A stretch of 10,660 nt of DNA from a virus (lineage: Duplodnaviria; Heunggongvirae; Uroviricota; Caudoviricetes). Made by a program: the position numbers and the translations under genes. Below the pieces are notes generated by a model. That model saw only the letters and a list, made by a program, of their open reading frames with translations. It had not been told where the DNA came from and did no database searches. Shown here in pieces: positions 184 through 10,132 of this stretch. The stretch lies in the IMG/VR virus record IMGVR_UViG_2695420540_000012; one strand, written 5' to 3'. How positions within the stretch are numbered: the stretch's first letter is position 1; every line of letters starts with the position of its first letter.

Positions 184-1266
184 TCATTTTCTCTGGCTGA
201 TCTTTACCGGATAACCATCCCGAAGATCAATTAAGTGCTCCGGTTCAGAAGCAAACCATGCATAAGATCCCCACGCCAATTCTGGTATTGCCTTTTTAAA
301 AGGCAGAGCACTTCTGTCCATAAATGCCGTAAGGAATGCAAGATTTTTCTCGCTGAACCCAGCGTCAATAGCCAAATGAGTGAGAGTAACTTTTCGTTCC
401 CTGTTTATAGGCCCATCTGTCGCAACTACTTCAGTGAAAACTACAAGCATGTCCGAACCCGTTCGGTCCTCTCCCAAATCAATCAAAATAATATCTGGAA
501 GTGCTTTTGAGGCATCAATATTCAGCCCCAATGCTTTTGCCAATACATCATCCTGAGCAACAACTTTATTCCCGGATTCAGACAACCAGAGCACAGTTGG
601 ATTCTTAAGAAAATTAGGAGCAAAAACTTCGATGACGGCCTTAGCTATTGTACTTGACGGGCCCGGAGCTAAAGTTCTCTTCTCTCCATTTGGGAAAGTG
701 ACGACTACGGCATCAGCAGCAATCACTGCCCCTGATTTCAATAAACGCAACCTAGCAAGAGCGGCTTTGTTCAAATGATTTTCTTGCCAGGAACTTATTG
801 CACTCAGCAGCGAATCTCCTTCAAGCCCGGCATCAAAGAGTGCTGCAAAAGAGCGATTCAAACTGTAACGAGGACGAGAGGATGTGGTGGGTATACCTTT
901 ACGCTCAACAATTGCATTGCAAGGTATTAGGCCATTTTTTATAGTTTCATCACGTATTGGCTCACGCGTATTTTCCGCATACCATGCATCAGCAGGCCTT
1001 ATCTTTTGTTTAGAGAAAGTCATCTTTACCCAGCTTTCTCTGGACGCATCATCAGTAAGAGCAGCCTGCGAATCTCCCATACTTACAACCTGGCTGGGCC
1101 TTATCCATCGCCCCAGCCCCTCAACCGCACCAGCATAAAACATGACAAAAATTGTTTTTGCAGCTATTTCCCGAATTAAATATCCACGATTCTCAGTCCC
1201 TTCAGGGAAAATTAATTGTAATCTTTCCCGGATAACATTCAATGGGGGAACAACAGGCAGATTCAT
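184..1266 (-). CDS. Putative Type II restriction endonuclease (360 aa), partner of the upstream methyltransferase; possibly BsuBI/PstI-like
   Basis: Its ATG overlaps the methyltransferase stop in an ATGA overlap at 1263-1266, the classic coupled M then R arrangement. Contains a PD...EVV segment (ALPDIILIDLG...MLVVFTEVVATDG) reminiscent of a PD-(D/E)xK core, but the canonical lysine is not where expected. Family assignment is recollection, not a search. Confidence 0.5.
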   Translation of the reverse strand: MNLPVVPPLNVIRERLQLIFPEGTENRGYLIREIAAKTIFVMFYAGAVEGLGRWIRPSQVVSMGDSQAALTDDASRESWVKMTFSKQKIRPADAWYAENTREPIRDETIKNGLIPCNAIVERKGIPTTSSRPRYSLNRSFAALFDAGLEGDSLLSAISSWQENHLNKAALARLRLLKSGAVIAADAVVVTFPNGEKRTLAPGPSSTIAKAVIEVFAPNFLKNPTVLWLSESGNKVVAQDDVLAKALGLNIDASKALPDIILIDLGEDRTGSDMLVVFTEVVATDGPINRERKVTLTHLAIDAGFSEKNLAFLTAFMDRSALPFKKAIPELAWGSYAWFASEPEHLIDLRDGYPVKISQRK

Positions 1267-3095
1267 GCAATCATCACTCCATAGAAACCAGCGATAGTTC
1301 TCTCAATAATCCGTCTGTGGACGCCAGCATCAATTAACGATTGAATCTCCATCACCTGCTCCAGAGAAGGCAACGGGATTGAATTCAATTCATAGGCCGA
1401 AACAGCAACACTTCCGCTTATACACCTGAACGCCCGATCGACAACATGCGAATTAAGTAGCATATCAATAACATCAGGGCGAACCGCAGAGAACAATCCG
1501 TTTGAATATACAATATTAATATGGTTTTCAACTACTACGCCACCAGTTTCATCTATAAATCCCTGAGGTAAAATTGCCGCTAAAATCCTTCTGTCCTGTT
1601 CCTTCGATGTTGTCCGCTGAACAAGCACACATTCAGATTTTGTCACAAGGAAACCCTGTTGTGGGGTTATATCGATATAGGGAACATGATTTTTTCTGTC
1701 TGCACTAAAACGAAAACCAGCTGAAGTTATTGATTCCGCCCAGACTAATGGGTAGCTATTTTTTCCTTTCGTCGTACGCAACTGCGACTTAAATCGATTC
1801 CAGACTAACTGACCTGTAGAGACTGAGTATCCCAGATCAGCTAAACGCGTAGACATCTGTTTTAATACATTAAGAAAACAGGCATCATCTTTAACGCGTG
1901 GCAAAAGCCACGTTGCTCCACCTTTTTCTATATCAACATTACCTATTTTCTCAATTTTTGCTTTGTTCAACCCCTTAGGGACAAGTGAGGATACCTGGGC
2001 CCGAACTTTATGTTCTCCCGCCTTGAATGCTGTCAACATTGTTTCCTGGAGAACATCGTCAAAGACCCCATCCCTGTCAGTGACGAAATCAAGGGCATAC
2101 GGAGTAGTTTTTTCGGTCAAAAGGGTTCGCAGCGCGGTGAAATACTGCCCACCAAGAAAAGAAGTTGGCGTAAGAAATGCAATAACTCCTGTTTTCTCTT
2201 TAACCATGCGAACAGCTAAGTCGGTGAACAATCCATATAGATTTGCATGACCAAATAACGAACGAGAATATTTTTCTCTCGTTTTAATATCGAGAGTGAC
2301 ACGTCCGTAAGGCGGATTCCCTACCACAAGATCATAACCAGAAAATTTATCTTGCTGAAGCGCATCAGCAACAATAATTGTATCTTCAGGCAATCTACGT
2401 TTTACCTTTACACATAGTGGCATTAGTACAGATTCGAGCAATACCAAACTCATCCAAGCCGCAAATGGATCGATTTCTATCCCCTTTAAACGACGACTGA
2501 TTCTCCTCAACATCCATTCAGGGGAAGACCCCTTGTCTTTTTTTAACATTCGAATGGCTACTGGTGCCAAAAATGCACCGCCACCACACGCAGGATCAAT
2601 AACCGATGCATGAGAAAAATCAACACCAGACTTTTCAGCCAGGTCCAAGAGACGCGCTACCAAAGGTGGGGGGGTATAGTAAGCCCCCAATTCCGAACGG
2701 TAAGCGGATGGCAGCATTACCGTATAAATTGACCCAATCAGATATCCAGCGTCCTCCGCCGGAAATTGAGCAATAAGCTCACCTGTTCGTTCAGCGAGCT
2801 CGCGTGCATCACATGGAATGTCTTCTATGTAAACAGTGTGCGGTACTGCCCTCATTTTAATGCTGCTTTTTTGCTTTTTTGCAAGGGTATCCCAATATGC
2901 AGCTACGATGCTGAAGCAGTATGAGCGGGCATGCATCAACCTTGACTGCCCGGTTTTGTAATTGCCCGCATAACCTTTGGCCATGGCTTTACAAGTTTGA
3001 TATCTTTCCAGATTAGAAAACTCATTATCTGTAAAAAAATCAAAATGTTGCACATTCATAATGTAAAATCCTAATGTATCAAACATGCGGGCCAT
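1263..3095 (-). CDS. N6-adenine DNA methyltransferase, gamma-class, Eco57I/N6_Mtase-like (610 aa)
   Basis: Motif X-like GAYYTPPPLV, motif I VIDPACGGGAFL, motif IV VVGNPPYG in gamma-class order, followed by about 340 aa of probable target-recognition domain. Start is ambiguous: ATG at 3095 has no Shine-Dalgarno, and in-frame ATGs lie at about 3083 and 3059. Confidence 0.85.
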   Translation of the reverse strand: MARMFDTLGFYIMNVQHFDFFTDNEFSNLERYQTCKAMAKGYAGNYKTGQSRLMHARSYCFSIVAAYWDTLAKKQKSSIKMRAVPHTVYIEDIPCDARELAERTGELIAQFPAEDAGYLIGSIYTVMLPSAYRSELGAYYTPPPLVARLLDLAEKSGVDFSHASVIDPACGGGAFLAPVAIRMLKKDKGSSPEWMLRRISRRLKGIEIDPFAAWMSLVLLESVLMPLCVKVKRRLPEDTIIVADALQQDKFSGYDLVVGNPPYGRVTLDIKTREKYSRSLFGHANLYGLFTDLAVRMVKEKTGVIAFLTPTSFLGGQYFTALRTLLTEKTTPYALDFVTDRDGVFDDVLQETMLTAFKAGEHKVRAQVSSLVPKGLNKAKIEKIGNVDIEKGGATWLLPRVKDDACFLNVLKQMSTRLADLGYSVSTGQLVWNRFKSQLRTTKGKNSYPLVWAESITSAGFRFSADRKNHVPYIDITPQQGFLVTKSECVLVQRTTSKEQDRRILAAILPQGFIDETGGVVVENHINIVYSNGLFSAVRPDVIDMLLNSHVVDRAFRCISGSVAVSAYELNSIPLPSLEQVMEIQSLIDAGVHRRIIERTIAGFYGVMIA

Positions 3096-3790: not shown

Positions 3791-4294
3791 TTATTGATAG
3801 TGTTTTATGTTCAGATAATGCCCGATGACTTTGTCATGCAGCTCCACCGATTTTGAGAACGACAGCGACTTCCGTCCCAGCCGTGCCAGGTGCTGCCTCA
3901 GATTCAGGTTATGCCGCTCAATTCGCTGCGTATATCGCTTGCTGATTACGTGCAGCTTTCCCTTCAGGCGGGATTCATACAGCGGCCAGCCATCCGTCAT
4001 CCATATCACCACGTCAAAGGGTGACAGCAGGCTCATAAGACGCCCCAGCGTCGCCATAGTGCGTTCACCGAATACGTGCGCAACAACCGTCTTCCGGAGA
4101 CTGTCATACGCGTAAAACAGCCAGCGCTGGCGCGATTTAGCCCCGACATAGCCCCACTGTTCGTCCATTTCCGCGCAGACGATGACGTCACTGCCCGGCT
4201 GTATGCGCGAGGTTACCGACTGCGGCCTGAGTTTTTTAAGTGACGTAAAATCGTGTTGAGGCCAACGCCCATAATGCGTGCAGTTGCCCGGCAT
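3791..4294 (-). CDS. insB: IS1 InsB frame (expressed as InsAB' transposase by -1 frameshift)
   Basis: 167-aa frame (...[42 protein letters not shown]...) overlapping the insA 3' end at the A6C site. Confidence 0.9.
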
Positions 4295-4488
4295 CCAACG
4301 CCATTCATGGCCATATCAATGATTTTCTGGTGCGTACCGGGTTGAGAAGCGGTGTAAGTGAACTGCAGTTGCCATGTTTTACGGCAGTGAGAGCAGAGAT
4401 AGCGCTGATGTCCGGCAGTGCTTTTGCCGTTACGCACCACCCCGTCAGTAGCTGAACAGGAGGGACAGCTGATAGAAACAGAAGCCAC
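4213..4488 (-). CDS. insA: IS1 InsA (transposition inhibitor, N-terminal part of the InsAB' transposase)
   Basis: 91 aa beginning [24 protein letters not shown], the canonical InsA zinc-finger/HTH protein, with a GTG start. Confidence 0.95.
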
Positions 4489-4615: not shown

Positions 4616-5146
4616 TCACAACAGCACCTTCTGAAAATTACCCTGATAGAAAGCCAGTACACGCTGCATAGCTTCGCTCTTCCGGCACTCGCTACAGATT
4701 ATGTTTTGACGCCTGTCGTAGCGGCGTATTTCTCCGTCTGGTAATGACCAGATAAGGTCCGGATCAACCACAGATGGTTTCTTCAGCTTTGCCCTCGAGA
4801 GTTTTTTGCGGGCGTTTTGCCAGTCCTTACGAGCCTGTTCAGACGGGAATAACCCGTANNNNNNNNNNNNNNNNNNNNNNNNNNNNNNNNNNNNNNNNNN
4901 NNNNNNNNNNNNNNNNNNNNNNNNNNNNNNNNNNNNNNNNNNNNNNNNNNNNNNNNNNNNNNNNNNNCCAGAGTTGTATACATCGCCACTGGCAACCAGC
5001 TCTCTGGCGAGAACACTCATCAGATATCTTGTCGCACCTGTCTTGGCTTCCAGTTGCCGCAACGTCTCGCGACCGCTCAGACGTACAAGTTCAACAACCT
5101 GCCCCTTAATTTTTTCCCGCTCTTCCTGTGTAAATACTTTTGCCAT
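4616..5146 (-). CDS. Hypothetical prophage protein, middle masked by Ns (4859-4967)
   Basis: Frame is maintained across the N run. N-terminus MAKVFTQEEREKIKGQVVELVRLSGRETLRQLEAKTGATRYLMSVLARELV is helix-turn-helix-like; C-terminus contains CSECRKSE. Starts 15 nt after the stop of the upstream gene. Confidence 0.5.
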   Translation of the reverse strand: MAKVFTQEEREKIKGQVVELVRLSGRETLRQLEAKTGATRYLMSVLARELVASGDVYNSXXXXXXXXXXXXXXXXXXXXXXXXXXXXXXXXXXXXXYGLFPSEQARKDWQNARKKLSRAKLKKPSVVDPDLIWSLPDGEIRRYDRRQNIICSECRKSEAMQRVLAFYQGNFQKVLL

Positions 5147-5908: not shown

Positions 5909-6300
5909 TTACTTCACAACTCCCGGAAAGCTGACATTTGAACGCCAGCTATCCCAGTTAAACGTCACCCACCGACAACCGTTCATGGTCATGCGGTCCA
6001 TAATCCTCTCACCAAGAAGCGTGCTCATTGCGGCATGATTCAGGTTTGTTAACATCCCGACACTGCACAGTGATGCTGTCCGGCGATCAATTATCTGGTG
6101 CAATACCACCTGCTCGTTTTTCGTCTCCCGCTGAATGCCTATTTCATCCAGGACCAGCAAATCAACCCCGCAAAGCTCCTGTAAAAATTTTTCACCGGAT
6201 TTGCCGTTGTCGTAGCTGTCATGCAACACGCTCATGACATCAGACTCGGTGACGATAATCACGCTGCGCCCCTTCGCCATCAGCCGGTTACCCATCGCCG
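5909..6300 (-). CDS. DnaC-like helicase loader (IstB-like AAA+), C-terminal part only; N-terminal part hidden in Ns
   Basis: KGRSVIIVTESDVMS...LLVLDEIGIQRETKNEQVVLHQIIDRRTASLCSVGMLTNLNHAAMSTLLGERIMDRMTMNGCRWVTFNWDSWRS aligns closely with the E. coli DnaC / Rac YdaV C-terminal half as remembered, including Walker B (DEIG). Walker A would lie in the masked region. Confidence 0.85.
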
Positions 6301-6777
6301 NNNNNNNNNNNNNNNNNNNNNNNNNNNNNNNNNNNNNNNNNNNNNNNNNNNNNNNNNNNNNNNNNNNNNNNNNNNNNNNNNNNNNNNNNNNNNNNNNNNN
6401 NNNNNNNNNNNNNNNNNNNNNNNNNNNNNNNNNNNNNNNNNNNNNNNNNNNNNNNNNNNNNNNNNNNNNNNNNNNNNNNNNNNNNNNNNNNNNNNNNNNN
6501 NNNNNNNNNNNNNNNNNNNNNNNNNNNNNNNNNNNNNNNNNNNNNNNNNNNNNNNNNNNNNNNNNNNNNNNNNNNNNNNNNNNNNNNNNNNNNNNNNNNN
6601 NNNNNNNNNNNNNNNNNNNNNNNNNNNNNNNNNNNNNNNNNNNTCCACCGNNNNNNNNNNNNNNNNNNNNNNNNNNNNNNNNNNNNNNNNNNNNNNNNNN
6701 NNNNNNNNNNNNNNNNNNNNNNNNNNNNNNNNNNNNNNNNNNNNNNNNNNNNNNNNNNNNNNNNNNNNNNNNNNNNN

Positions 6778-7817
6778 TCGGTATCCGGTTCAGAAATATG
6801 ATTCACACAACGCTGGTTGTTCGTGCCGCTTACCGGGAGCAACCAGGGGTTTTCAAAATTCCGGTCCGGCCCAAAAAACGTCGTCGCTCGCTGAACAAAT
6901 TCCGTTCCCGCTTTCCCGGTCGCCGCCAGGTATCTCGCGTAACGCCTCACACCATCCAGCATGGTCTCTGGTGGCACCCCCTCGCGCAATCTGGCCTTCC
7001 AGGCACTGAATGCGGATTTCTTCGGGTTTGCCCCGGCACGCAACGGGTATTCCCGCCAGACCTGTTCGAACACATCCGGATAATCCACTCGTCCCACAGG
7101 CTGCCCGGTGTTTTCCGGGGCTACCCGATCGGCTTCCCGCTGAATGGCGGAATCGGCTTCAGGCTGCTGCAGTTGGAGTGATTGCTCCGGCCTTGCGGTC
7201 ATCACCTGCTGCACAGCGCCCGAATCGGCTTTCAGCGCATACGCTGAATCGGCTTCCGGTGTCGAGCCTGCTGGCTGACCAGGATTGACGGTCTGAACAT
7301 CCCCTGCCTGGTTCGTGGCGTTTTTTACGCCATGGACCATAGTGTTTTGATCTTCTTTATCTGTATCTTTATCTGTATCTGTCGTGACTCGTCGTGACAT
7401 GTGCGTGACATTTCGTGACGCGCCGTGACAATCGCCATTTTGTTCCCGCTTTCTTTCCCTCTCTCGCTGCGCCCTCTTGCGCTCTGCAGGAGATTTTGCG
7501 GTTTGCGAAATATTGCCGTTGTCCTCTTTAAGCACCTGGCGTTTTTCCCATCCAGTGATTAAATCACCATCAAGTACCCGCCCCTGCATCGTCTGCAAAA
7601 TTGAATCAATTACCTCTTCTGTCACGTCGAGCGCACTTGCCAAATCTTCTGTCGTGACATCAATGTGACCTCGCGTGACATTTCGTGACGCGCTCACCAG
7701 GAGGTGGATATACACTGCCATCACTGTTGCAATTGGCTGCCCTGACACCCTGGCAATTGTTCGCCACTTAGGGTCATTTGGCATGTCATGCCATAATCTG
7801 AGCCAGGCGTTAGCCAT
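6778..7817 (-). CDS. Putative phage replication initiator / replisome organiser (O-like), 3' end hidden in Ns
   Basis: Shine-Dalgarno GAGGTGA 4 nt upstream of the ATG at 7815-7817. Lies directly upstream of the DnaC-like gene and contains two iteron clusters, as lambda O contains ori. The six-frame track runs this frame through the N block to 6288, but the true stop is not visible. Confidence 0.6.
7356..7379. repeat. Tandem 12-bp direct repeat (tttatctgtatc x2) next to iteron cluster A
   Basis: Exact tandem duplication at 7356-7367 and 7368-7379, followed immediately by the first CGTGAC iteron. Confidence 0.7.
7383..7429. repeat. Iteron cluster A: five CGTGAC copies at 10-11 bp phasing (candidate ori)
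   Basis: CGTGAC at 7383, 7393, 7404, 7414 and 7424. Includes the first copy of a 21-bp exact direct repeat GCGTGACATTTCGTGACGCGC (7403-7423). Confidence 0.65.
7653..7693. repeat. Iteron cluster B: four (C/T)GTGAC copies at 10-11 bp phasing (candidate ori)
   Basis: CGTGAC/TGTGAC at 7653, 7664, 7674 and 7684, plus an inverted GTCACG at 7621. Includes the second copy of the 21-bp repeat (7673-7693). Confidence 0.65.
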
Positions 7818-7888
7818 ACTCACCTCTTCTGATACCGAATCTTTTTACTCACGAGTTGCCGGGAGCGATTCGATATGGCTATTGTCAG

Positions 7889-8314
7889 TCAATGTACTGC
7901 CACAGCATTTCCTGCCGGGCCACCACGGTTCATCTGATTGAAACCGGCGATTGCCACTGCGACAAAATCATCAGCGTCTCTCACCAGTCGTTCATGCGTC
8001 TCCACCAGTTCCCGAAAATAAGCTGAACTGTGGCTGCGCATTCGAGCCACCAGCGGAGGTGGCATTGCCCTTTCGATCGCAGGTAACAACGCCTGAATTT
8101 TTTCAACAGCGTCAGGGGTGTCTTTATCCAGCCAACGGAAAATCTTTTGGGTGTTGAGATAAAGCGTGTTGTGCTTGCTGTCGTTATGCAGAACCGGAAA
8201 CGTCATTCCCAGTTCGAAATAAACCCTGGTTATTTCAGCTGCCGGAACTTTTTCACCGTCCGGATGCGCCCAGGCTTTCATCGCCATGCGGATGTGTTCA
8301 TGCTTGATTTTCAT
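7889..8314 (-). CDS. CII-like / YdaT-family prophage regulator (141 aa)
   Basis: N-terminus MKIKHEHI matches what I recall of Rac YdaT. Its ATG overlaps the stop of the upstream Cro-like gene in an ATGA overlap at 8311-8314, and it sits between the Cro-like and initiator genes as in Rac (ydaS-ydaT-ydaU-ydaV). Confidence 0.55.
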   Translation of the reverse strand: MKIKHEHIRMAMKAWAHPDGEKVPAAEITRVYFELGMTFPVLHNDSKHNTLYLNTQKIFRWLDKDTPDAVEKIQALLPAIERAMPPPLVARMRSHSSAYFRELVETHERLVRDADDFVAVAIAGFNQMNRGGPAGNAVAVH

Positions 8315-8574
8315 GAATCAACCCCCGCCGATGGTTGTGTGTTAGCCTGAAACTCAGCAGGCAAGCCGTCAGTTGGGTTGGGGTAGGTTTTACTGTCAAT
8401 CTCATGTGGGGTCACCACCCATCCCGTTGCTTCACACCAACGTAATATTTTTTCTCCTGTAAGTTTTGCACGCCCCGTTATAACGTGGCTGACCATCCCT
8501 TGGGATGCGCCAACAATCTCAGCAAATGAACTCTGGGTTATATGAAAATGATGCAAATATTCTCCAAGATTCAT
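8311..8574 (-). CDS. Cro-like HTH regulator (YdaS/Cro family), 87 aa from the ATG at 8572-8574
   Basis: Helix-turn-helix ITQSSFAEIVGASQGMVSHVITGRAKLTGEKI. Transcribed divergently from the repressor across the operator region. The track's longer ORF begins at a TTG (8601); the ATG has a GGGCGG purine patch upstream. Confidence 0.7.
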   Translation of the reverse strand: MNLGEYLHHFHITQSSFAEIVGASQGMVSHVITGRAKLTGEKILRWCEATGWVVTPHEIDSKTYPNPTDGLPAEFQANTQPSAGVDS

Positions 8575-8610
8575 AATCCGCCCTATGTGATGTGTTACCA
8601 ATGCATAATT

Positions 8611-8650
8611 AATAGCACTGTTATTTTTAAAAGTAAATAGTGATGCTATT
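8611..8650. promoter_or_regulatory. OR-like operator pair with divergent promoters
   Basis: Two 15-bp imperfect palindromes, AATAGCACTGTTATT (8611-8625) and AATAGTGATGCTATT (8636-8650), consensus AATAGC-N3-GCTATT. On the minus strand TTTACT (-35-like) and TATTAAT (-10-like) overlap them. Confidence 0.6.
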
Positions 8651-8685
8651 TCAAAGTGATTAGCAATCTTATTAGAATTGGATGT

Positions 8686-9186
8686 ATGAAAAGAAAATCA
8701 TTGTCAGACACCGACCTCAACGCCGCCAGAAGACTGAAAGAAATCTGGATGGCAAAGAAATCTCAGTTGGGATTGACTCAGGAACGTGCGGCGGAAATTA
8801 TGGGGTTTTCAACACAAGGGGCGGTAAGTCACTACCTAAATGGTCAAACCCCACTAAACCTTGAGGCTGTTCTAAAGTTTGCTGGCTTACTGAAAGTTCC
8901 CCCTGAGTCAATCAGGCCAGACATGGTAGATTTGCTGCAAATTGCAAGGATGTATTGTCGAGAACCACAGCAAGATAACATAGTCGCATTACCAGCAGAC
9001 ACAGAACAAACAGAGGATGAACTACCGTTTGCCGTAGAGCCGATGGAACGAGATTTAATCCATACGTTCAGAGCTTTTCCGAAAGAAGATCAAGAACACA
9101 TGCTTCAGGAGATGAAAGATAAAAAAGAATCAATGGATCGTACGGTTGCGCGGTGGTTAGCTGCACAAAAAGGCCGTCGCGCCTAA
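8686..9186 (+). CDS. Prophage repressor, XRE/CI-type HTH (RacR/CI analogue); start could instead be GTG at 8656
   Basis: Helix-turn-helix LGLTQERAAEIMGFSTQGAVSHYLNGQ. Sits divergent to the Cro-like gene. No LexA/S24-type G-x-S-M ... K peptidase motif is visible in the C-terminal half. Confidence 0.7.
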   Translation: MKRKSLSDTDLNAARRLKEIWMAKKSQLGLTQERAAEIMGFSTQGAVSHYLNGQTPLNLEAVLKFAGLLKVPPESIRPDMVDLLQIARMYCREPQQDNIVALPADTEQTEDELPFAVEPMERDLIHTFRAFPKEDQEHMLQEMKDKKESMDRTVARWLAAQKGRRA

Positions 9187-9205
9187 ATCAGAGGAGATAT
9201 GTAAA

Positions 9206-9400
9206 ATGAGTACAGTCCTTTCCCCAATGGTTTCAGAATTTGAGACAGTTGAGCAAGAAAATAGTTACAACGAATGGCTGCGGGCCAAAGTAGCAGCAAG
9301 CCTCGCGGATCCCCGCCCGGCGATTCCGCATGATGAGGTAATGGCGGAAATGGAACAAATTATTGCCCAAATTGCTGCTGCAACTCACAGAGGTGAATAA
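9206..9400 (+). CDS. Putative type II antitoxin (ParD-type partner of the ParE/RelE toxin), 64 aa
   Basis: Shine-Dalgarno GAGGAG 9 nt upstream. Small acidic protein whose TAA stop overlaps the toxin ATG (TAATG at 9398-9402). Family assignment is by context and general resemblance only. Confidence 0.55.
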   Translation: MSTVLSPMVSEFETVEQENSYNEWLRAKVAASLADPRPAIPHDEVMAEMEQIIAQIAAATHRGE

Positions 9401-9690
9401 TGTTACCCGTTTTATGGCTACCATCTGCTCGTGATGATTTGCGCCAGATCGTAGCCTACATAGCTAAAGAAAATCCCGCGGCAGCACGCAGAATGAAAAT
9501 TCGAATTGAAACATCCGTTTTGCCGCTCACAGAGCATCCTTACCTGTATCCTCCAAGCGAGCGAGTTCTTGGTCTTCGTGAAATTGTAACTCATCCTAAC
9601 TACATCATCCTTTACCGAGTAACAGCATCAAGCATAGAAGTAGTAAATATTGTGCATTCTCGAAGACAGTATCCAGGCAAAAACAGTTAA
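9400..9690 (+). CDS. ParE/RelE-family type II toxin (96 aa)
   Basis: Family-typical pattern: N-terminal DDLRQIVAYIAKENPAAARRM and C-terminal LREIVTHPNYIILYRVTASSIEVVNIVHSRRQY. Translationally coupled to the upstream antitoxin. Confidence 0.75.
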   Translation: MLPVLWLPSARDDLRQIVAYIAKENPAAARRMKIRIETSVLPLTEHPYLYPPSERVLGLREIVTHPNYIILYRVTASSIEVVNIVHSRRQYPGKNS

Positions 9691-9706
9691 TTATTCCCGC
9701 CGACAG

Positions 9707-9728
9707 AACCACCTTAGGGTGGTTTTTT
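9707..9728 (+). terminator. Rho-independent terminator after the repressor/antitoxin/toxin genes
   Basis: Stem AACCACC / GGTGGTT with loop TTAG, followed by a six-T run. Confidence 0.6.
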
Positions 9729-9746
9729 CTTGCCCCAACAAAAAAC

Positions 9747-9787
9747 AATAGCGATGCTATTTACATCAAAAAAATAATGATGCTATT
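9747..9787. promoter_or_regulatory. OL-like operator pair with a rightward promoter
   Basis: AATAGCGATGCTATT (9747-9761, perfect 6-3-6 palindrome) and AATAATGATGCTATT (9773-9787), same consensus as the 8611-8650 pair. TTTACA (9760-9765) and TATTGT (9784-9789) with an 18-bp spacer overlap them. Confidence 0.55.
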
Positions 9788-9968
9788 GTTTCAGGCGTCA
9801 ACCCACCCCGCCCCACAGAATGCAGGGCAATACTTCGAGTTACCAGACAGTGGTCAGGGGTTAAGTAGCCAGCCCGAGGCGTAAGAACATGACGGCAGGG
9901 TTCAATCTTTAACTATGCAGCAGGTTTTTTGTTCCGCCACCCCGGCGTTAAGGGGAAATGAGGTCAGC

Positions 9969-10121
9969 ATGGATACTATCGATCTTGGCAACAACGAATC
10001 TCTGGTGTGCGGCGTGTTCCCTAACCAGGATGGAACGTTTACCGCCATGACGTATACCAAAAGCAAAACGTTTAAAACCGAATCTGGCGCGCGTTGCTGG
10101 TTAGCCAGAAACACTGACTGA
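9969..10121 (+). CDS. Small prophage early protein (50 aa), Rac YdaG/YdaF-like
   Basis: GAGG 7 nt upstream of the ATG. MDTIDLGNNESLVCGVFPNQDGTFTAMTYTKSKTFK resembles what I recall of the small Rac proteins next to racR. Confidence 0.5.
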   Translation: MDTIDLGNNESLVCGVFPNQDGTFTAMTYTKSKTFKTESGARCWLARNTD

Positions 10122-10132
10122 TGAGGCTGACG

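Follow-up and report, generated by a model that had tools for sequence, protein, structure and literature searches.

The immunity switch of prophage CP-933P (Sp12, E. coli O157:H7) is the closest studied system to the locus described here, and it comprises PaaR2-PaaA2-ParE2 together with YdaS and YdaT (Jurenas et al. 2021, PMC8630535; Prolic-Kalinsek et al. 2023, PMC9986795). EMSA, footprinting and reporter data are available for this switch, its paaR2 mRNA is leaderless, and the PaaR2 repressor is octameric in solution (PMC8630535). In the Qin prophage, both a PL-like promoter and a divergent cro-like gene answer to a short repressor that has no RecA-cleavage site (bioRxiv 10.1101/2023.04.14.536235).

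A locus of similar layout is present in the 10,660-nt stretch of DNA analysed here (the window). The original prediction had placed four copies of AATAGC-N3-GCTATT around a repressor/toxin-antitoxin block and had read them as operators of the repressor. We found that these sites very probably serve as operators in a lambdoid prophage immunity switch, with that repressor as their reader, as judged from sequence comparisons in which the sites interdigitate with the predicted promoters and co-occur with one lambda-cI-like domain across many genomes. The architecture is textbook phage wiring and will not surprise a phage geneticist; with their DNA-recognition sequence, these operators represent a new specificity within a familiar kind of immunity. 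A literature search for AATAGC/GCTATT half-sites as an operator found no earlier description and gave unrelated papers only.

Probable operator sites in the window

The features of the locus are listed in Table 1. The four copies lie where they had been predicted, in two tandem pairs, one between the Cro-like and repressor genes and the other after the terminator, ahead of the early genes. However, only the copy at 9747 is exact, and the other three carry 1-2 mismatches. Measured from start to start, the members of the OR pair are 25 bp apart and those of the OL pair 26 bp, in agreement with the 25-26 bp given previously. The consensus of the four-site palindrome in the window is AATAGCA-N-TGCTATT (15 bp).

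Table 1. Coordinates of the immunity-region features in the window
Feature	Position	Strand	Sequence elements	Description
YdaT	7889-8314	-		functional CII analogue; close homologue of CP-933P YdaT; PDB 8bt1, E 3e-70
YdaT operator OM (predicted)	8304-8321		exact TTGATT-N6-AATCAA	at the cro-like/ydaT junction (PMC9986795)
Cro-like HTH protein	8311-8574	-		87 aa; weak HTH_3 similarity
PR (predicted)	8609-8637	-	-35 TTTACT (8637-8632), 17-nt spacer, TGn, -10 TATTAA (8614-8609)	
OR1	8611-8625		AATAGCACTGTTATT	predicted PR-proximal operator; 1 mismatch, 20.5 bits
OR2	8636-8650		AATAGTGATGCTATT	predicted operator; 1 mismatch, 21.1 bits
PRM (predicted)	8650-8678	+	-35 TTCAAA, 17 nt, -10 TAGAAT	promoter scan
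Candidate OR3	8659-8673		ATTAGCAATCTTATT	3 mismatches, 7.3 bits
Immunity repressor (predicted)	8686-9186	+		166 aa
PaaA-type antitoxin	9206-9400	+		Pfam PaaA2 (3e-23); PDB 3zbe homologue; predicted to be co-transcribed with the repressor
ParE-type toxin	9400-9690	+		Pfam ParE_toxin (1.8e-17); PDB 5cw7 homologue
Intrinsic terminator	9705-9731	+		end of the repressor-paaA-parE operon, just upstream of OL2
OL2	9747-9761		AATAGCGATGCTATT	predicted operator; exact palindrome, 23.7 bits
PL (predicted)	9760-9789	+	-35 TTTACA, 18 nt, TG-extended -10 TATTGT	promoter scan
OL1	9773-9787		AATAATGATGCTATT	predicted operator; 2 mismatches, 18.0 bits
Conserved leader	~9796-9968	+		start of the PL-driven early-left operon
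ydfA (DUF1391)	9969-10121	+		start of the PL-driven early-left operon

Five matches with at most two mismatches were observed in the window compared with 0.39 expected, and none of 200 shuffled windows reached five; the fifth match, at 4667, is isolated and weak. A weight matrix was then built from 71 window-independent sites of other genomes, and 10,009 window positions were scored. The four sites scored 18-24 bits, and the next best positions scored 9.4 bits (4667) and 7.3 bits (8659). A repeat search of the OR and OL regions returned the four sites as the top direct-repeat and inverted-repeat families common to both, and no second common motif was found in these two regions.

Two other elements were set aside. 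Within the repressor gene, 8771-8782 and 8902-8913 form a perfect inverted repeat of 12 nt, which is not kept in relatives and was attributed to chance. A weak minus-strand Rfam match at 9737-9791 (E 0.63) reflects the palindromic OL region only.

Promoters and neighbouring genes

The overlap with -35/-10-like hexamers noted in the original prediction was seen at PR, PRM and PL. PR was read by eye from the sequence, as it is excluded by the strict rule of the promoter scan. The PR -10 takes its TATT from the left 4 nt of OR1, whose TGC forms the extended -10 on the minus strand; OR2 overlaps 2 nt of the PR -35 and 1 nt of the PRM -35. At the other end, the last 2 nt of OL2 are the beginning of the PL -35, the last 4 nt of OL1 are the TATT of the PL -10, and the TGC of OL1 is the extended -10. 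The PR and PL layouts are alike, and they are kept in relatives. The start from PR is predicted at ~8602, with the cro-like gene, ydaT and the replication genes downstream, and that from PL at ~9796.

The centre of OR2 lies at about -43 relative to the predicted PRM start. The PRM -10 ends 7 nt ahead of A8686 of the repressor ATG, a Shine-Dalgarno sequence is absent, and this -10/ATG geometry is kept in relatives. By analogy with the leaderless paaR2 mRNA mapped by 5'-RACE and with lambda cI (PMC8630535), the repressor mRNA is predicted to be leaderless, with its start at or beside A8686.

The cro-like and repressor genes are divergent and are separated by an intergenic gap of 111 bp. The recognition helices of the two proteins are similar (SQGMVSHV in the Cro-like protein, TQGAVSHY in the repressor), with QGxVSH in both, and the Cro-like protein very likely uses the same sites as the repressor. 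The block bracketed by the two pairs had been taken for a repressor/toxin-antitoxin block, and the domain and PDB homologues of its products indeed give repressor-PaaA-ParE. The terminator at the end of this operon consists of a hairpin (9705-9726) and a U-tract (-15.1 kcal/mol, z = -2.7).

The leader downstream of PL matches no Rfam family, its folding is no better than that of shuffles (z = +1.15), and one compensatory pair was found among 15 variants. Given these three results, the leader is not claimed as an RNA element. In the closest relative of the window, ydfA-ydfB-ydfC-dicB follow downstream. IS1 and masked stretches are present in the prophage, which may be defective.

The repressor protein

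In the product of 8686-9186, taken for the repressor in the original prediction, a lambda-cI-type DNA-binding domain was recognised by phmmer and by AlphaFold/Foldseek. In the AlphaFold model, residues 1-90 form a lambda-cI-like five-helix DNA-binding domain, residues 92-111 a disordered linker, and residues 119-165 a helical hairpin. The N-domain shares ~37-40% identity with its lambda cI counterpart (1lmb; phmmer E 3e-9), and comparison of the model with the lambda cI N-domain gave a Foldseek TM of 0.85-0.94. Glu33 and Glu37 align with lambda cI Glu34 and Asp38, which are activation-patch residues, and the acidic character is retained.

The last 44 aa of the repressor display 52% identity to the PaaR2 C-terminus, and no match to a Peptidase_S24 (LexA-like autoprotease) domain was found in the repressor by domain search. 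On these alignments, the repressor is a chimera of a lambda-cI-like N-domain and a PaaR2-like C-terminal tail. Identity as PaaR2 was ruled out, since the C-terminal tail is all that the two proteins have in common and their operators differ. Because it carries a PaaR2-like tail instead of a LexA-like protease domain, the repressor is probably, by analogy, a higher-order oligomer that is not SOS-cleavable.

Conservation of the sites in related loci

Relatives were gathered by protein search, contig look-ups, and DNA-pattern scans of viral and bacterial collections; a contig search with the single repressor protein found no relatives. In the isolated-phage collection, neither a DNA match to the immunity region nor a protein match of >60% identity was found, and thus no characterised phage was usable as a reference. 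Among complete E. coli genomes, ~1.3% have the immunity type, O104:H4 and O145:H28 strains among them; Shigella sonnei apparently carries it too.

In relatives ~80% identical in DNA, AATAG[C/T]/[G/A]CTATT is kept, whereas the central 3 bp and the flanks vary. A DNA-only two-site pattern scan returned 62 viral contigs, and the N-domain is encoded beside the sites in 44 of them, with an identity in the pattern-scan loci as low as 29-36%. When one genome was counted per species, 16 loci had a good tandem pair and 11 of these encoded the domain, compared with 2 of 31 loci with single-site AT-rich chance matches. All 155 sites with at most one mismatch in 448 kb of enterobacterial prophage DNA stood in tandem pairs. 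As a negative control, no AATAGC sites were found in CP-933P, whose repressor has an unrelated DNA-binding domain. Across many genomes the motif tracks this DNA-binding domain, and the association supports the operator reading.

Chance AT-rich repeats, or generic promoter architecture (UP-element-like, extended -10) with no dedicated binding protein, could also be invoked for the sites. TGCTATT, the right half-site, is at the same time an extended -10, and part of the conservation could therefore be promoter-driven; the pattern does match AT-rich genomes by chance, as in the 31 single-site loci. Nevertheless, the left half-sites and the distal sites are as conserved as the right ones, though they are not -10 elements. 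Dyad symmetry is upheld over the 71 independent sites with an information of ~19 bits, tandem pairs stand beside the same domain in genomes of 54-68% G+C as well, and the window itself holds far more matches than expected (see above). An origin by chance or by promoter architecture is thus scarcely credible.

The same operators were seen beside different genes. Relatives with the same N-domain and other downstream cargo (HipA_2/DUF3037, HigBA, or none) keep the OR pair and the PL-type pair; those with two-HTH repressors of 244-255 aa likewise keep the OR pair and the PL-type-promoter pair, and some distant relatives with the same operators have S24-type cI repressors. These loci bear on the proposal that the palindromes are autoregulatory operators of PaaA-ParE, as in classical type II toxin-antitoxin systems. 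The TA operon is bracketed by the sites, and the PaaA2-ParE2 complex is said, after Hallez in 2010, to contribute to full repression in CP-933P. However, the arrangement just described occurs without paaA-parE, the second pair lies beyond the operon terminator on a different promoter, and PaaA2 has no detectable DNA-binding motif (PMC8630535). Since the sites persist without the TA pair, autoregulation by PaaA-ParE was ruled out as wholly improbable.

If the palindromes were read only by the 87-aa Cro-like protein, the repressor would have to recognise another sequence or use protein contacts. Cro-like homologues are present in all close and several distant motif-bearing relatives, and comparison alone cannot separate the two proteins. 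Nevertheless, the OR and OL regions have no further motif in common, the recognition helices of the two proteins share QGxVSH, and several N-domain scan loci are without a Cro homologue at E<=1e-3 (e.g. L039, L045, L048, L050). Moreover, the operators are common to both proteins in lambda and CP-933P (PMC8630535). Reading by the Cro-like protein only is therefore very unlikely, and the repressor is retained as a probable reader of the sites.

In addition to the four sites of the original prediction, OR probably contains a third, weak one at 8659-8673. The candidate lies 23 bp from OR2, which is exactly the expected offset, within the PRM spacer and touching the PRM -10; it ranks 6 of 10,009 positions, and about 1 in 9,800 background positions scores higher. 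At the same position, the relative loci L006/L010 have ATTAGTAAAACTATT, a better match than that of the window, and distant relatives have three strong sites, which end ~11 nt before the repressor ATG. It is also conceivable that OR1, OR2, OL1 and OL2 are the only functional sites and that 8659-8673 is merely PRM spacer, with no negative autoregulation or three-site logic. The 3 mismatches and the low score of the candidate fit such a view, as does the still weaker match ATTAATAATCTTATT in loci L002/L003, and the overlapped promoter elements could themselves explain the conservation of the position. Set against the rank and offset of the candidate and the stronger sites of the relatives, a switch of four sites is rather unlikely, and a weak OR3 is preferred.

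These comparisons also allow a broader reading, which we consider possible rather than probable. The operator and the lambda-cI-like N-domain may form an ancient recognition module that is portable and has been combined with exchangeable C-terminal modules. The module would be marked by the helix [T/S]QGx[V/F]xxYL and would range from Shigella/Escherichia to Acidithiobacillus, Pandoraea, Marinobacter and Psychrobacter; the C-terminal options would include the S24 autoprotease, the PaaR2-type tail, a second HTH with a tail, and others. The enterobacterial exchange would be intragenic, with the junction inside the repressor gene, such that cro, OR, N-domain and OL, and with them the immunity specificity, were swapped without replacement of the tail, paaA-parE and the PL leader. 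If this is true, phages of one DNA specificity would differ in how, or whether, they are induced, and the published view of this TA pair as a safeguard against replacement of the immunity region would have to be qualified.

Proposed switch

In the switch that we propose, dimers of the repressor would bind OR1 and OR2 as well as OL1 and OL2, and the bound repressor would shut RNA polymerase out of PR and PL, because the proximal site of each pair holds the extended -10 (TGCTATT plus 2 nt) and the distal site enters the -35. Repression of PR would silence the cro-like, ydaT and replication genes, and that of PL the ydfA early operon. The repressor bound to OR2 would probably activate PRM, and hence paaA-parE, given that OR2 is centred at about -43 and abuts the PRM -35 and that the acidic residues Glu33/Glu37 are present. 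At high repressor levels, the weak OR3 inside PRM would lead to negative autoregulation, possibly helped by OR-OL looping over 1.1 kb via the PaaR2-like oligomerising tail. As to activation, looping and the oligomeric state of the repressor, the proposals are extrapolations based on lambda and PaaR2.

The Cro-like protein would be expected to compete for the sites of the repressor, and YdaT, at its own operator, would establish repressor synthesis. With the S24 domain absent, the repressor is not expected to be RecA-cleavable, and any induction would need an antirepressor.

The analysis provides a concrete operator consensus and a site map (OR1-3, OL1-2 and three promoters) for this immunity type. 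It also predicts a second immunity type in which transcription of the TA cargo is coupled to the repressor promoter.

Comparison with known systems

The locus resembles lambda in its divergent repressor and cro genes, in a repressor N-domain homologous to that of lambda cI, including the N-terminal basic arm, and in tandem palindromic operators ~2.4 helical turns apart (25, 23 and 26 bp in the window; 24 and 23 bp in lambda). The sites lie over PR, PRM and PL, with OR2 adjoining the PRM -35. Further likenesses are the leaderless repressor mRNA predicted for the window and the accessory genes that separate the repressor gene from OL (rexAB in lambda, paaA-parE in the window). However, the operator of the window is the 15-bp AATAGCA-N-TGCTATT, whereas that of lambda is of the 17-bp TATCACCGC type; OL has two sites in the window and three in lambda; the C-terminal domain is a PaaR2-like helical tail instead of the S24 autoprotease; and the role of CII is taken by YdaT. 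An N protein and nut sites were not recognised in the window.

With respect to Qin, the likeness to DicA/DicC is one of locus layout. A PL-like promoter lies upstream of ydfA in Qin (dicBp; operon ydfABC-dicF-dicB), and the predicted PL of the window is its counterpart. Unlike the window, Qin is reported to have three operators per promoter (bioRxiv 10.1101/2023.04.14.536235), and no TA cargo is present between the Qin repressor gene and dicBp.

CP-933P has the same gene order, namely ydaT, cro-like, OR, repressor, paaA, parE, PL and the conserved leader. It also shares YdaT with its operator TTGATT-N6-AATCAA, as well as homologous PaaA and ParE proteins; past PL, homology resumes at 9799 and the leader shows 93% identity. 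The leaderless start predicted in the window agrees with the mapped paaR2 start. In contrast, the repressor's DNA-binding domain is unrelated to that of PaaR2, as the N-domains do not align, and the Cro-like protein has no blastp match to YdaS. The operators of CP-933P are 18-bp palindromes with a GTTTAGTAA half-site (PMC8630535), and the published consensus of this GTTTAGTAA type is absent from OR and OL of the window. The window DNA that is non-homologous to CP-933P is exactly 8326-9120 and 9648-9798. On this alignment, the window is a heteroimmune version of the CP-933P switch in which exactly the two operator blocks, together with cro and the N-domain of the repressor, have been exchanged. 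The two loci share a chassis (YdaT, PaaA-ParE and the PL leader) and differ in the N-domain, the Cro-like protein and the operators; the window thus offers a natural heteroimmune partner for CP-933P, and the pair should lend itself to tests of how modules for specificity and for oligomerisation can be combined.

Genetic organization and distribution of the region

The four palindromic sites lie within a lambdoid prophage immunity region (Table). Shigella sonnei entries match the repressor protein at 100% identity; at the DNA level, two E. coli genomes match at 98% and about 70 more at approximately 80%. The cro-OR-repressor segment was carried by 72 of 5,426 complete genomes, and no record matching it was found in the phage collection searched. 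The prophage DNA also harbors a restriction-modification cargo module (184-3095) and an IS1 element inserted beside the replication-gene region. Stretches at roughly 4800-5000 and 6290-6900 are N-masked, so that parts of the O-like (6288-7823) and DnaC-like genes are hidden; the prophage is possibly defective.

Table. Features of the immunity region and other elements of the window
Feature	Position	Strand	Remark
BsuBI/PstI-type restriction endonuclease	184-1266	minus	
Eco57I/N6_Mtase-type methyltransferase	1263-3095	minus	
IS1 (insA/insB)	3791-4488		
AATAGC-N3-GCTATT match	4667		weak, isolated; ≤2 mismatches
YdaT-family protein	7889-8314	minus	E 3e-70 to CP-933P YdaT, PDB 8bt1
Cro-like HTH protein	8311-8574	minus	87 aa
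PR (predicted)	TTTACT(8637-8632)-17-TGC-TATTAA(8614-8609)	minus	
OR1	8611-8625		1 mismatch
OR2	8636-8650		1 mismatch
OR3 (candidate)	8659-8673		ATTAGCAATCTTATT
PRM (predicted)	TTCAAA(8650)-17-TAGAAT(8678)		
HTH protein (repressor)	8686-9186	plus	166 aa
PaaA-type antitoxin	9206-9400	plus	
ParE toxin	9400-9690	plus	
Intrinsic terminator	9705-9731	plus	-15.1 kcal/mol
OL2	9747-9761		0 mismatches
OL1	9773-9787		2 mismatches
PL (predicted)	TTTACA(9760)-18-TATTGT(9789)		TG-extended
ydfA (DUF1391)	9969-10121	plus	
DNA homology to CP-933P	7900-8325		79%
DNA homology to CP-933P	9121-9339		76%
DNA homology to CP-933P	parts of parE		
DNA homology to CP-933P	9799-9958		93%

Putative operator sites

The original prediction described four copies of the 15-bp palindrome AATAGC-N3-GCTATT, in two pairs spaced 25-26 bp. 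All four sites are present, but three are imperfect, and OL2 is the single exact copy in the window; the start-to-start distances were indeed 25 bp (8611/8636) and 26 bp (9747/9773). Five matches with ≤2 mismatches were observed versus 0.39 expected, a number reached in 0 of 200 shuffles. The four sites scored 23.7, 21.1, 20.5, and 18.0 bits against a weight matrix derived from 71 sites, all of them in other genomes, and the next best scores among 10,009 positions were 9.4 (4667) and 7.3 (8659); the matrix sites were chosen using the motif itself, which somewhat favours pattern-like sites. In the symmetrised consensus, A-A-T-A-G-C-A-N-T-G-C-T-A-T-T, AATA/TATT is almost invariant, and A and T are tolerated at G5 and C6, respectively. 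When the OR and OL regions were compared for repeats, the top common direct-repeat and inverted-repeat families were these same sites, and no further common motif was found. The OL region as a whole (9743-9791) is a larger palindrome, AAACAATAGC ... GCTATTGTTT, with arms 10/10 complementary, which accounts for a spurious weak Rfam hairpin match on the minus strand.

Predicted promoter-operator anatomy

The expected overlap of the sites with -35/-10-like hexamers was seen at the predicted promoters of the cro-like/ydaT side (PR), the repressor operon (PRM), and the ydfA early operon (PL). PRM and PL came from a promoter scan, which missed PR because its -10 lacks the final T; PR was read directly from the sequence. 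At PR and PL alike, the site nearer the transcription start provides 'TGCTATT', which makes up the extended -10 and four bases of the hexamer itself, and the distal site overlaps the -35 by two bases. OR2 touches the PRM -35, its centre lying approximately 43 bp upstream of where PRM transcription is predicted to begin, and the candidate OR3 occupies the PRM spacer and touches the -10. The OR centre distances of 25 and 23 bp are near the lambda geometry of 24 and 23 bp. A leaderless repressor mRNA is predicted from the position of the PRM -10, whose end lies 7 nt before A8686 of the ATG, and from the absence of a Shine-Dalgarno sequence. A promoter-like match facing back to parE (TTGACG-16-CATTAT, 9774-9801, minus strand) overlaps OL1; it is probably due to chance, since such matches in the region were no more numerous than in shuffles.

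Repressor and Cro-like proteins

The assignment of the 8686-9186 product as the repressor is supported by homology to lambda cI: residues 2-81 align to the cI N-terminal domain (E 3e-9), and the best structural matches of the AlphaFold model (mean pLDDT 78.6) are cI N-domain structures (TM 0.85-0.94, 37-40% identity). In the model, five helices at the N-terminus are joined by a disordered linker (92-111) to a helical hairpin at the C-terminus (119-165). The C-terminal 44 residues share 52% identity with the corresponding end of PaaR2, the CP-933P repressor, and the N-domains of the two proteins do not align; by sequence, the repressor is chimeric. No Peptidase_S24 domain was found by domain search of the protein. 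Among family members with these operators, some have S24 domains (loci L012, L075, L085, and L119), and others have a second HTH plus a PaaR-type tail (L006) or different short tails; their recognition helices have [T/S]-Q-G-x-[V/F]-x-x-Y-L in common. The two-HTH repressors of relatives (L006 3001-3735; L008 3001-3768; 244-255 aa) consist of a cI-like HTH, a second HTH, and the PaaR-type tail; the second HTH is also found alone in 132-aa PaaR-tail proteins. In the OR regions of the two-HTH relatives, sites of the AATAGC type are the only ones visible.

Homology links the Cro-like proteins of the close relatives and extends to those of some distant ones; these proteins carry the recognition-helix sequence SQGMVSHV. 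In the window, this helix has QGxVSH in common with that of the repressor (TQGAVSHY), the two proteins being otherwise dissimilar; this likeness fits one operator being read by both proteins.

Conservation of the putative operators

In related loci with approximately 80% DNA identity, the half-sites were kept and the flanks had diverged, and the central three bases varied (GAT, ACT, ATT, ATC, ACC, and AGT). Both site pairs were also retained beside N-domain relatives with another C-terminal architecture or downstream cargo, such as two-HTH repressors of 244-255 aa, with either HipA_2/DUF3037 or nothing behind them, and a Salmonella diarizonae protein of 154 aa with HigBA behind it. In these relatives, the pairs were spaced 25 bp in the cro-repressor gap and 24-26 bp at the PL-type promoter and lay 1.0-3.0 kb apart, with the -35/-10 interdigitation unchanged.

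Reciprocally, IMG/VR was scanned with a DNA-only pattern (AATAGCN3GCTATT-N9-11-AATAN7TATT). An N-domain homologue directly adjoined the sites in 44 of 62 loci, counts that do not represent independent events, many loci being near-duplicates; some homologues had just 29-36% identity and lay in DNA of 57-60% G+C. The same pattern applied to one genome per species (596 Gb) yielded 47 loci. A true tandem pair was present in 16, 11 of which encoded the domain (Acidithiobacillus, Pandoraea, Marinobacter, Psychrobacter, Legionellales, and others); the remaining 31 were single-site matches in AT-rich genomes, and only 2 encoded it. Enterobacterial prophage DNA (448 kb) contained 155 sites with ≤1 mismatch, every one of them in a tandem pair. 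As a negative control, CP-933P, which has the same chassis and an unrelated DNA-binding domain, contained no AATAGC-type site. Distant relatives usually have two OL sites and three strong OR sites, spaced 24-25 bp and ending approximately 11 nt before the repressor ATG, which supports 8659-8673 as a putative decayed OR3.

Proposed switch

Anatomy, comparisons, and protein homology thus argue for the predicted role of the sites as repressor operators at promoters. Repressor dimers on OR1+OR2 and OL1+OL2 would occlude PR and PL. The OR2-bound repressor probably activates the predicted leaderless PRM transcript, which also carries paaA-parE, since acidic residues are retained at the positions aligned with Glu34 and Asp38, which function in PRM activation in lambda. 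OR3 would mediate autorepression, and the Cro-like protein would compete with the repressor at the same sites. The PaaR2-like tail may drive higher-order assembly and OR-OL looping across 1.1 kb; PaaR2 is reported to be octameric (PMC8630535). YdaT would act at its own operator: the published site TTGATT-N6-AATCAA occurs exactly once in the window, at the cro-like/ydaT junction (8304-8321), placed as OM is in CP-933P (PMC9986795), so a PRE-type establishment promoter is probably also present. RecA-insensitivity is expected of the repressor, which lacks an S24 domain, and is reported for PaaR2 (PMC8630535) and for Qin DicA, which is released by an antirepressor (bioRxiv 10.1101/2023.04.14.536235).

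Comparison with known systems

No published description of the AATAGC-type operator was found in a literature coverage that is incomplete. As judged from the sequence, this is a new immunity specificity inside a well-known kind of switch; the architecture is ordinary, and the chimeric repressor and the wide distribution of the operator/N-domain pair add modest interest.

The untranslated PL-ydfA leader (9799-9958; also L005 3485-3645) shares 93% identity with its counterpart in the heteroimmune CP-933P, compared with only 76-79% for the neighbouring coding DNA. With 8300-10130 as the query, most complete E. coli genomes gave 90-95% matches to some portion of it. The leader has no family in Rfam, its folding is not better than that of shuffled sequences, and a single compensatory pair was seen among 15 variants; the leader corresponds by position to the leader of the Qin dicBF-type operon.

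Among studied systems, the CP-933P switch is the nearest. Homology to CP-933P DNA is absent from the cro-like gene, OR, and the N-domain and linker of the repressor (8326-9120) and from the end of parE, the terminator, and OL/PL (9648-9798), and restarts within approximately 3 nt of the predicted PL start. By this pattern, the window is a heteroimmune version of the CP-933P chassis, in which the swapped DNA comprises the operator blocks and their putative readers; the CP-933P operators differ, being 18-bp palindromes with the half-site GTTTAGTAA (PMC8630535).
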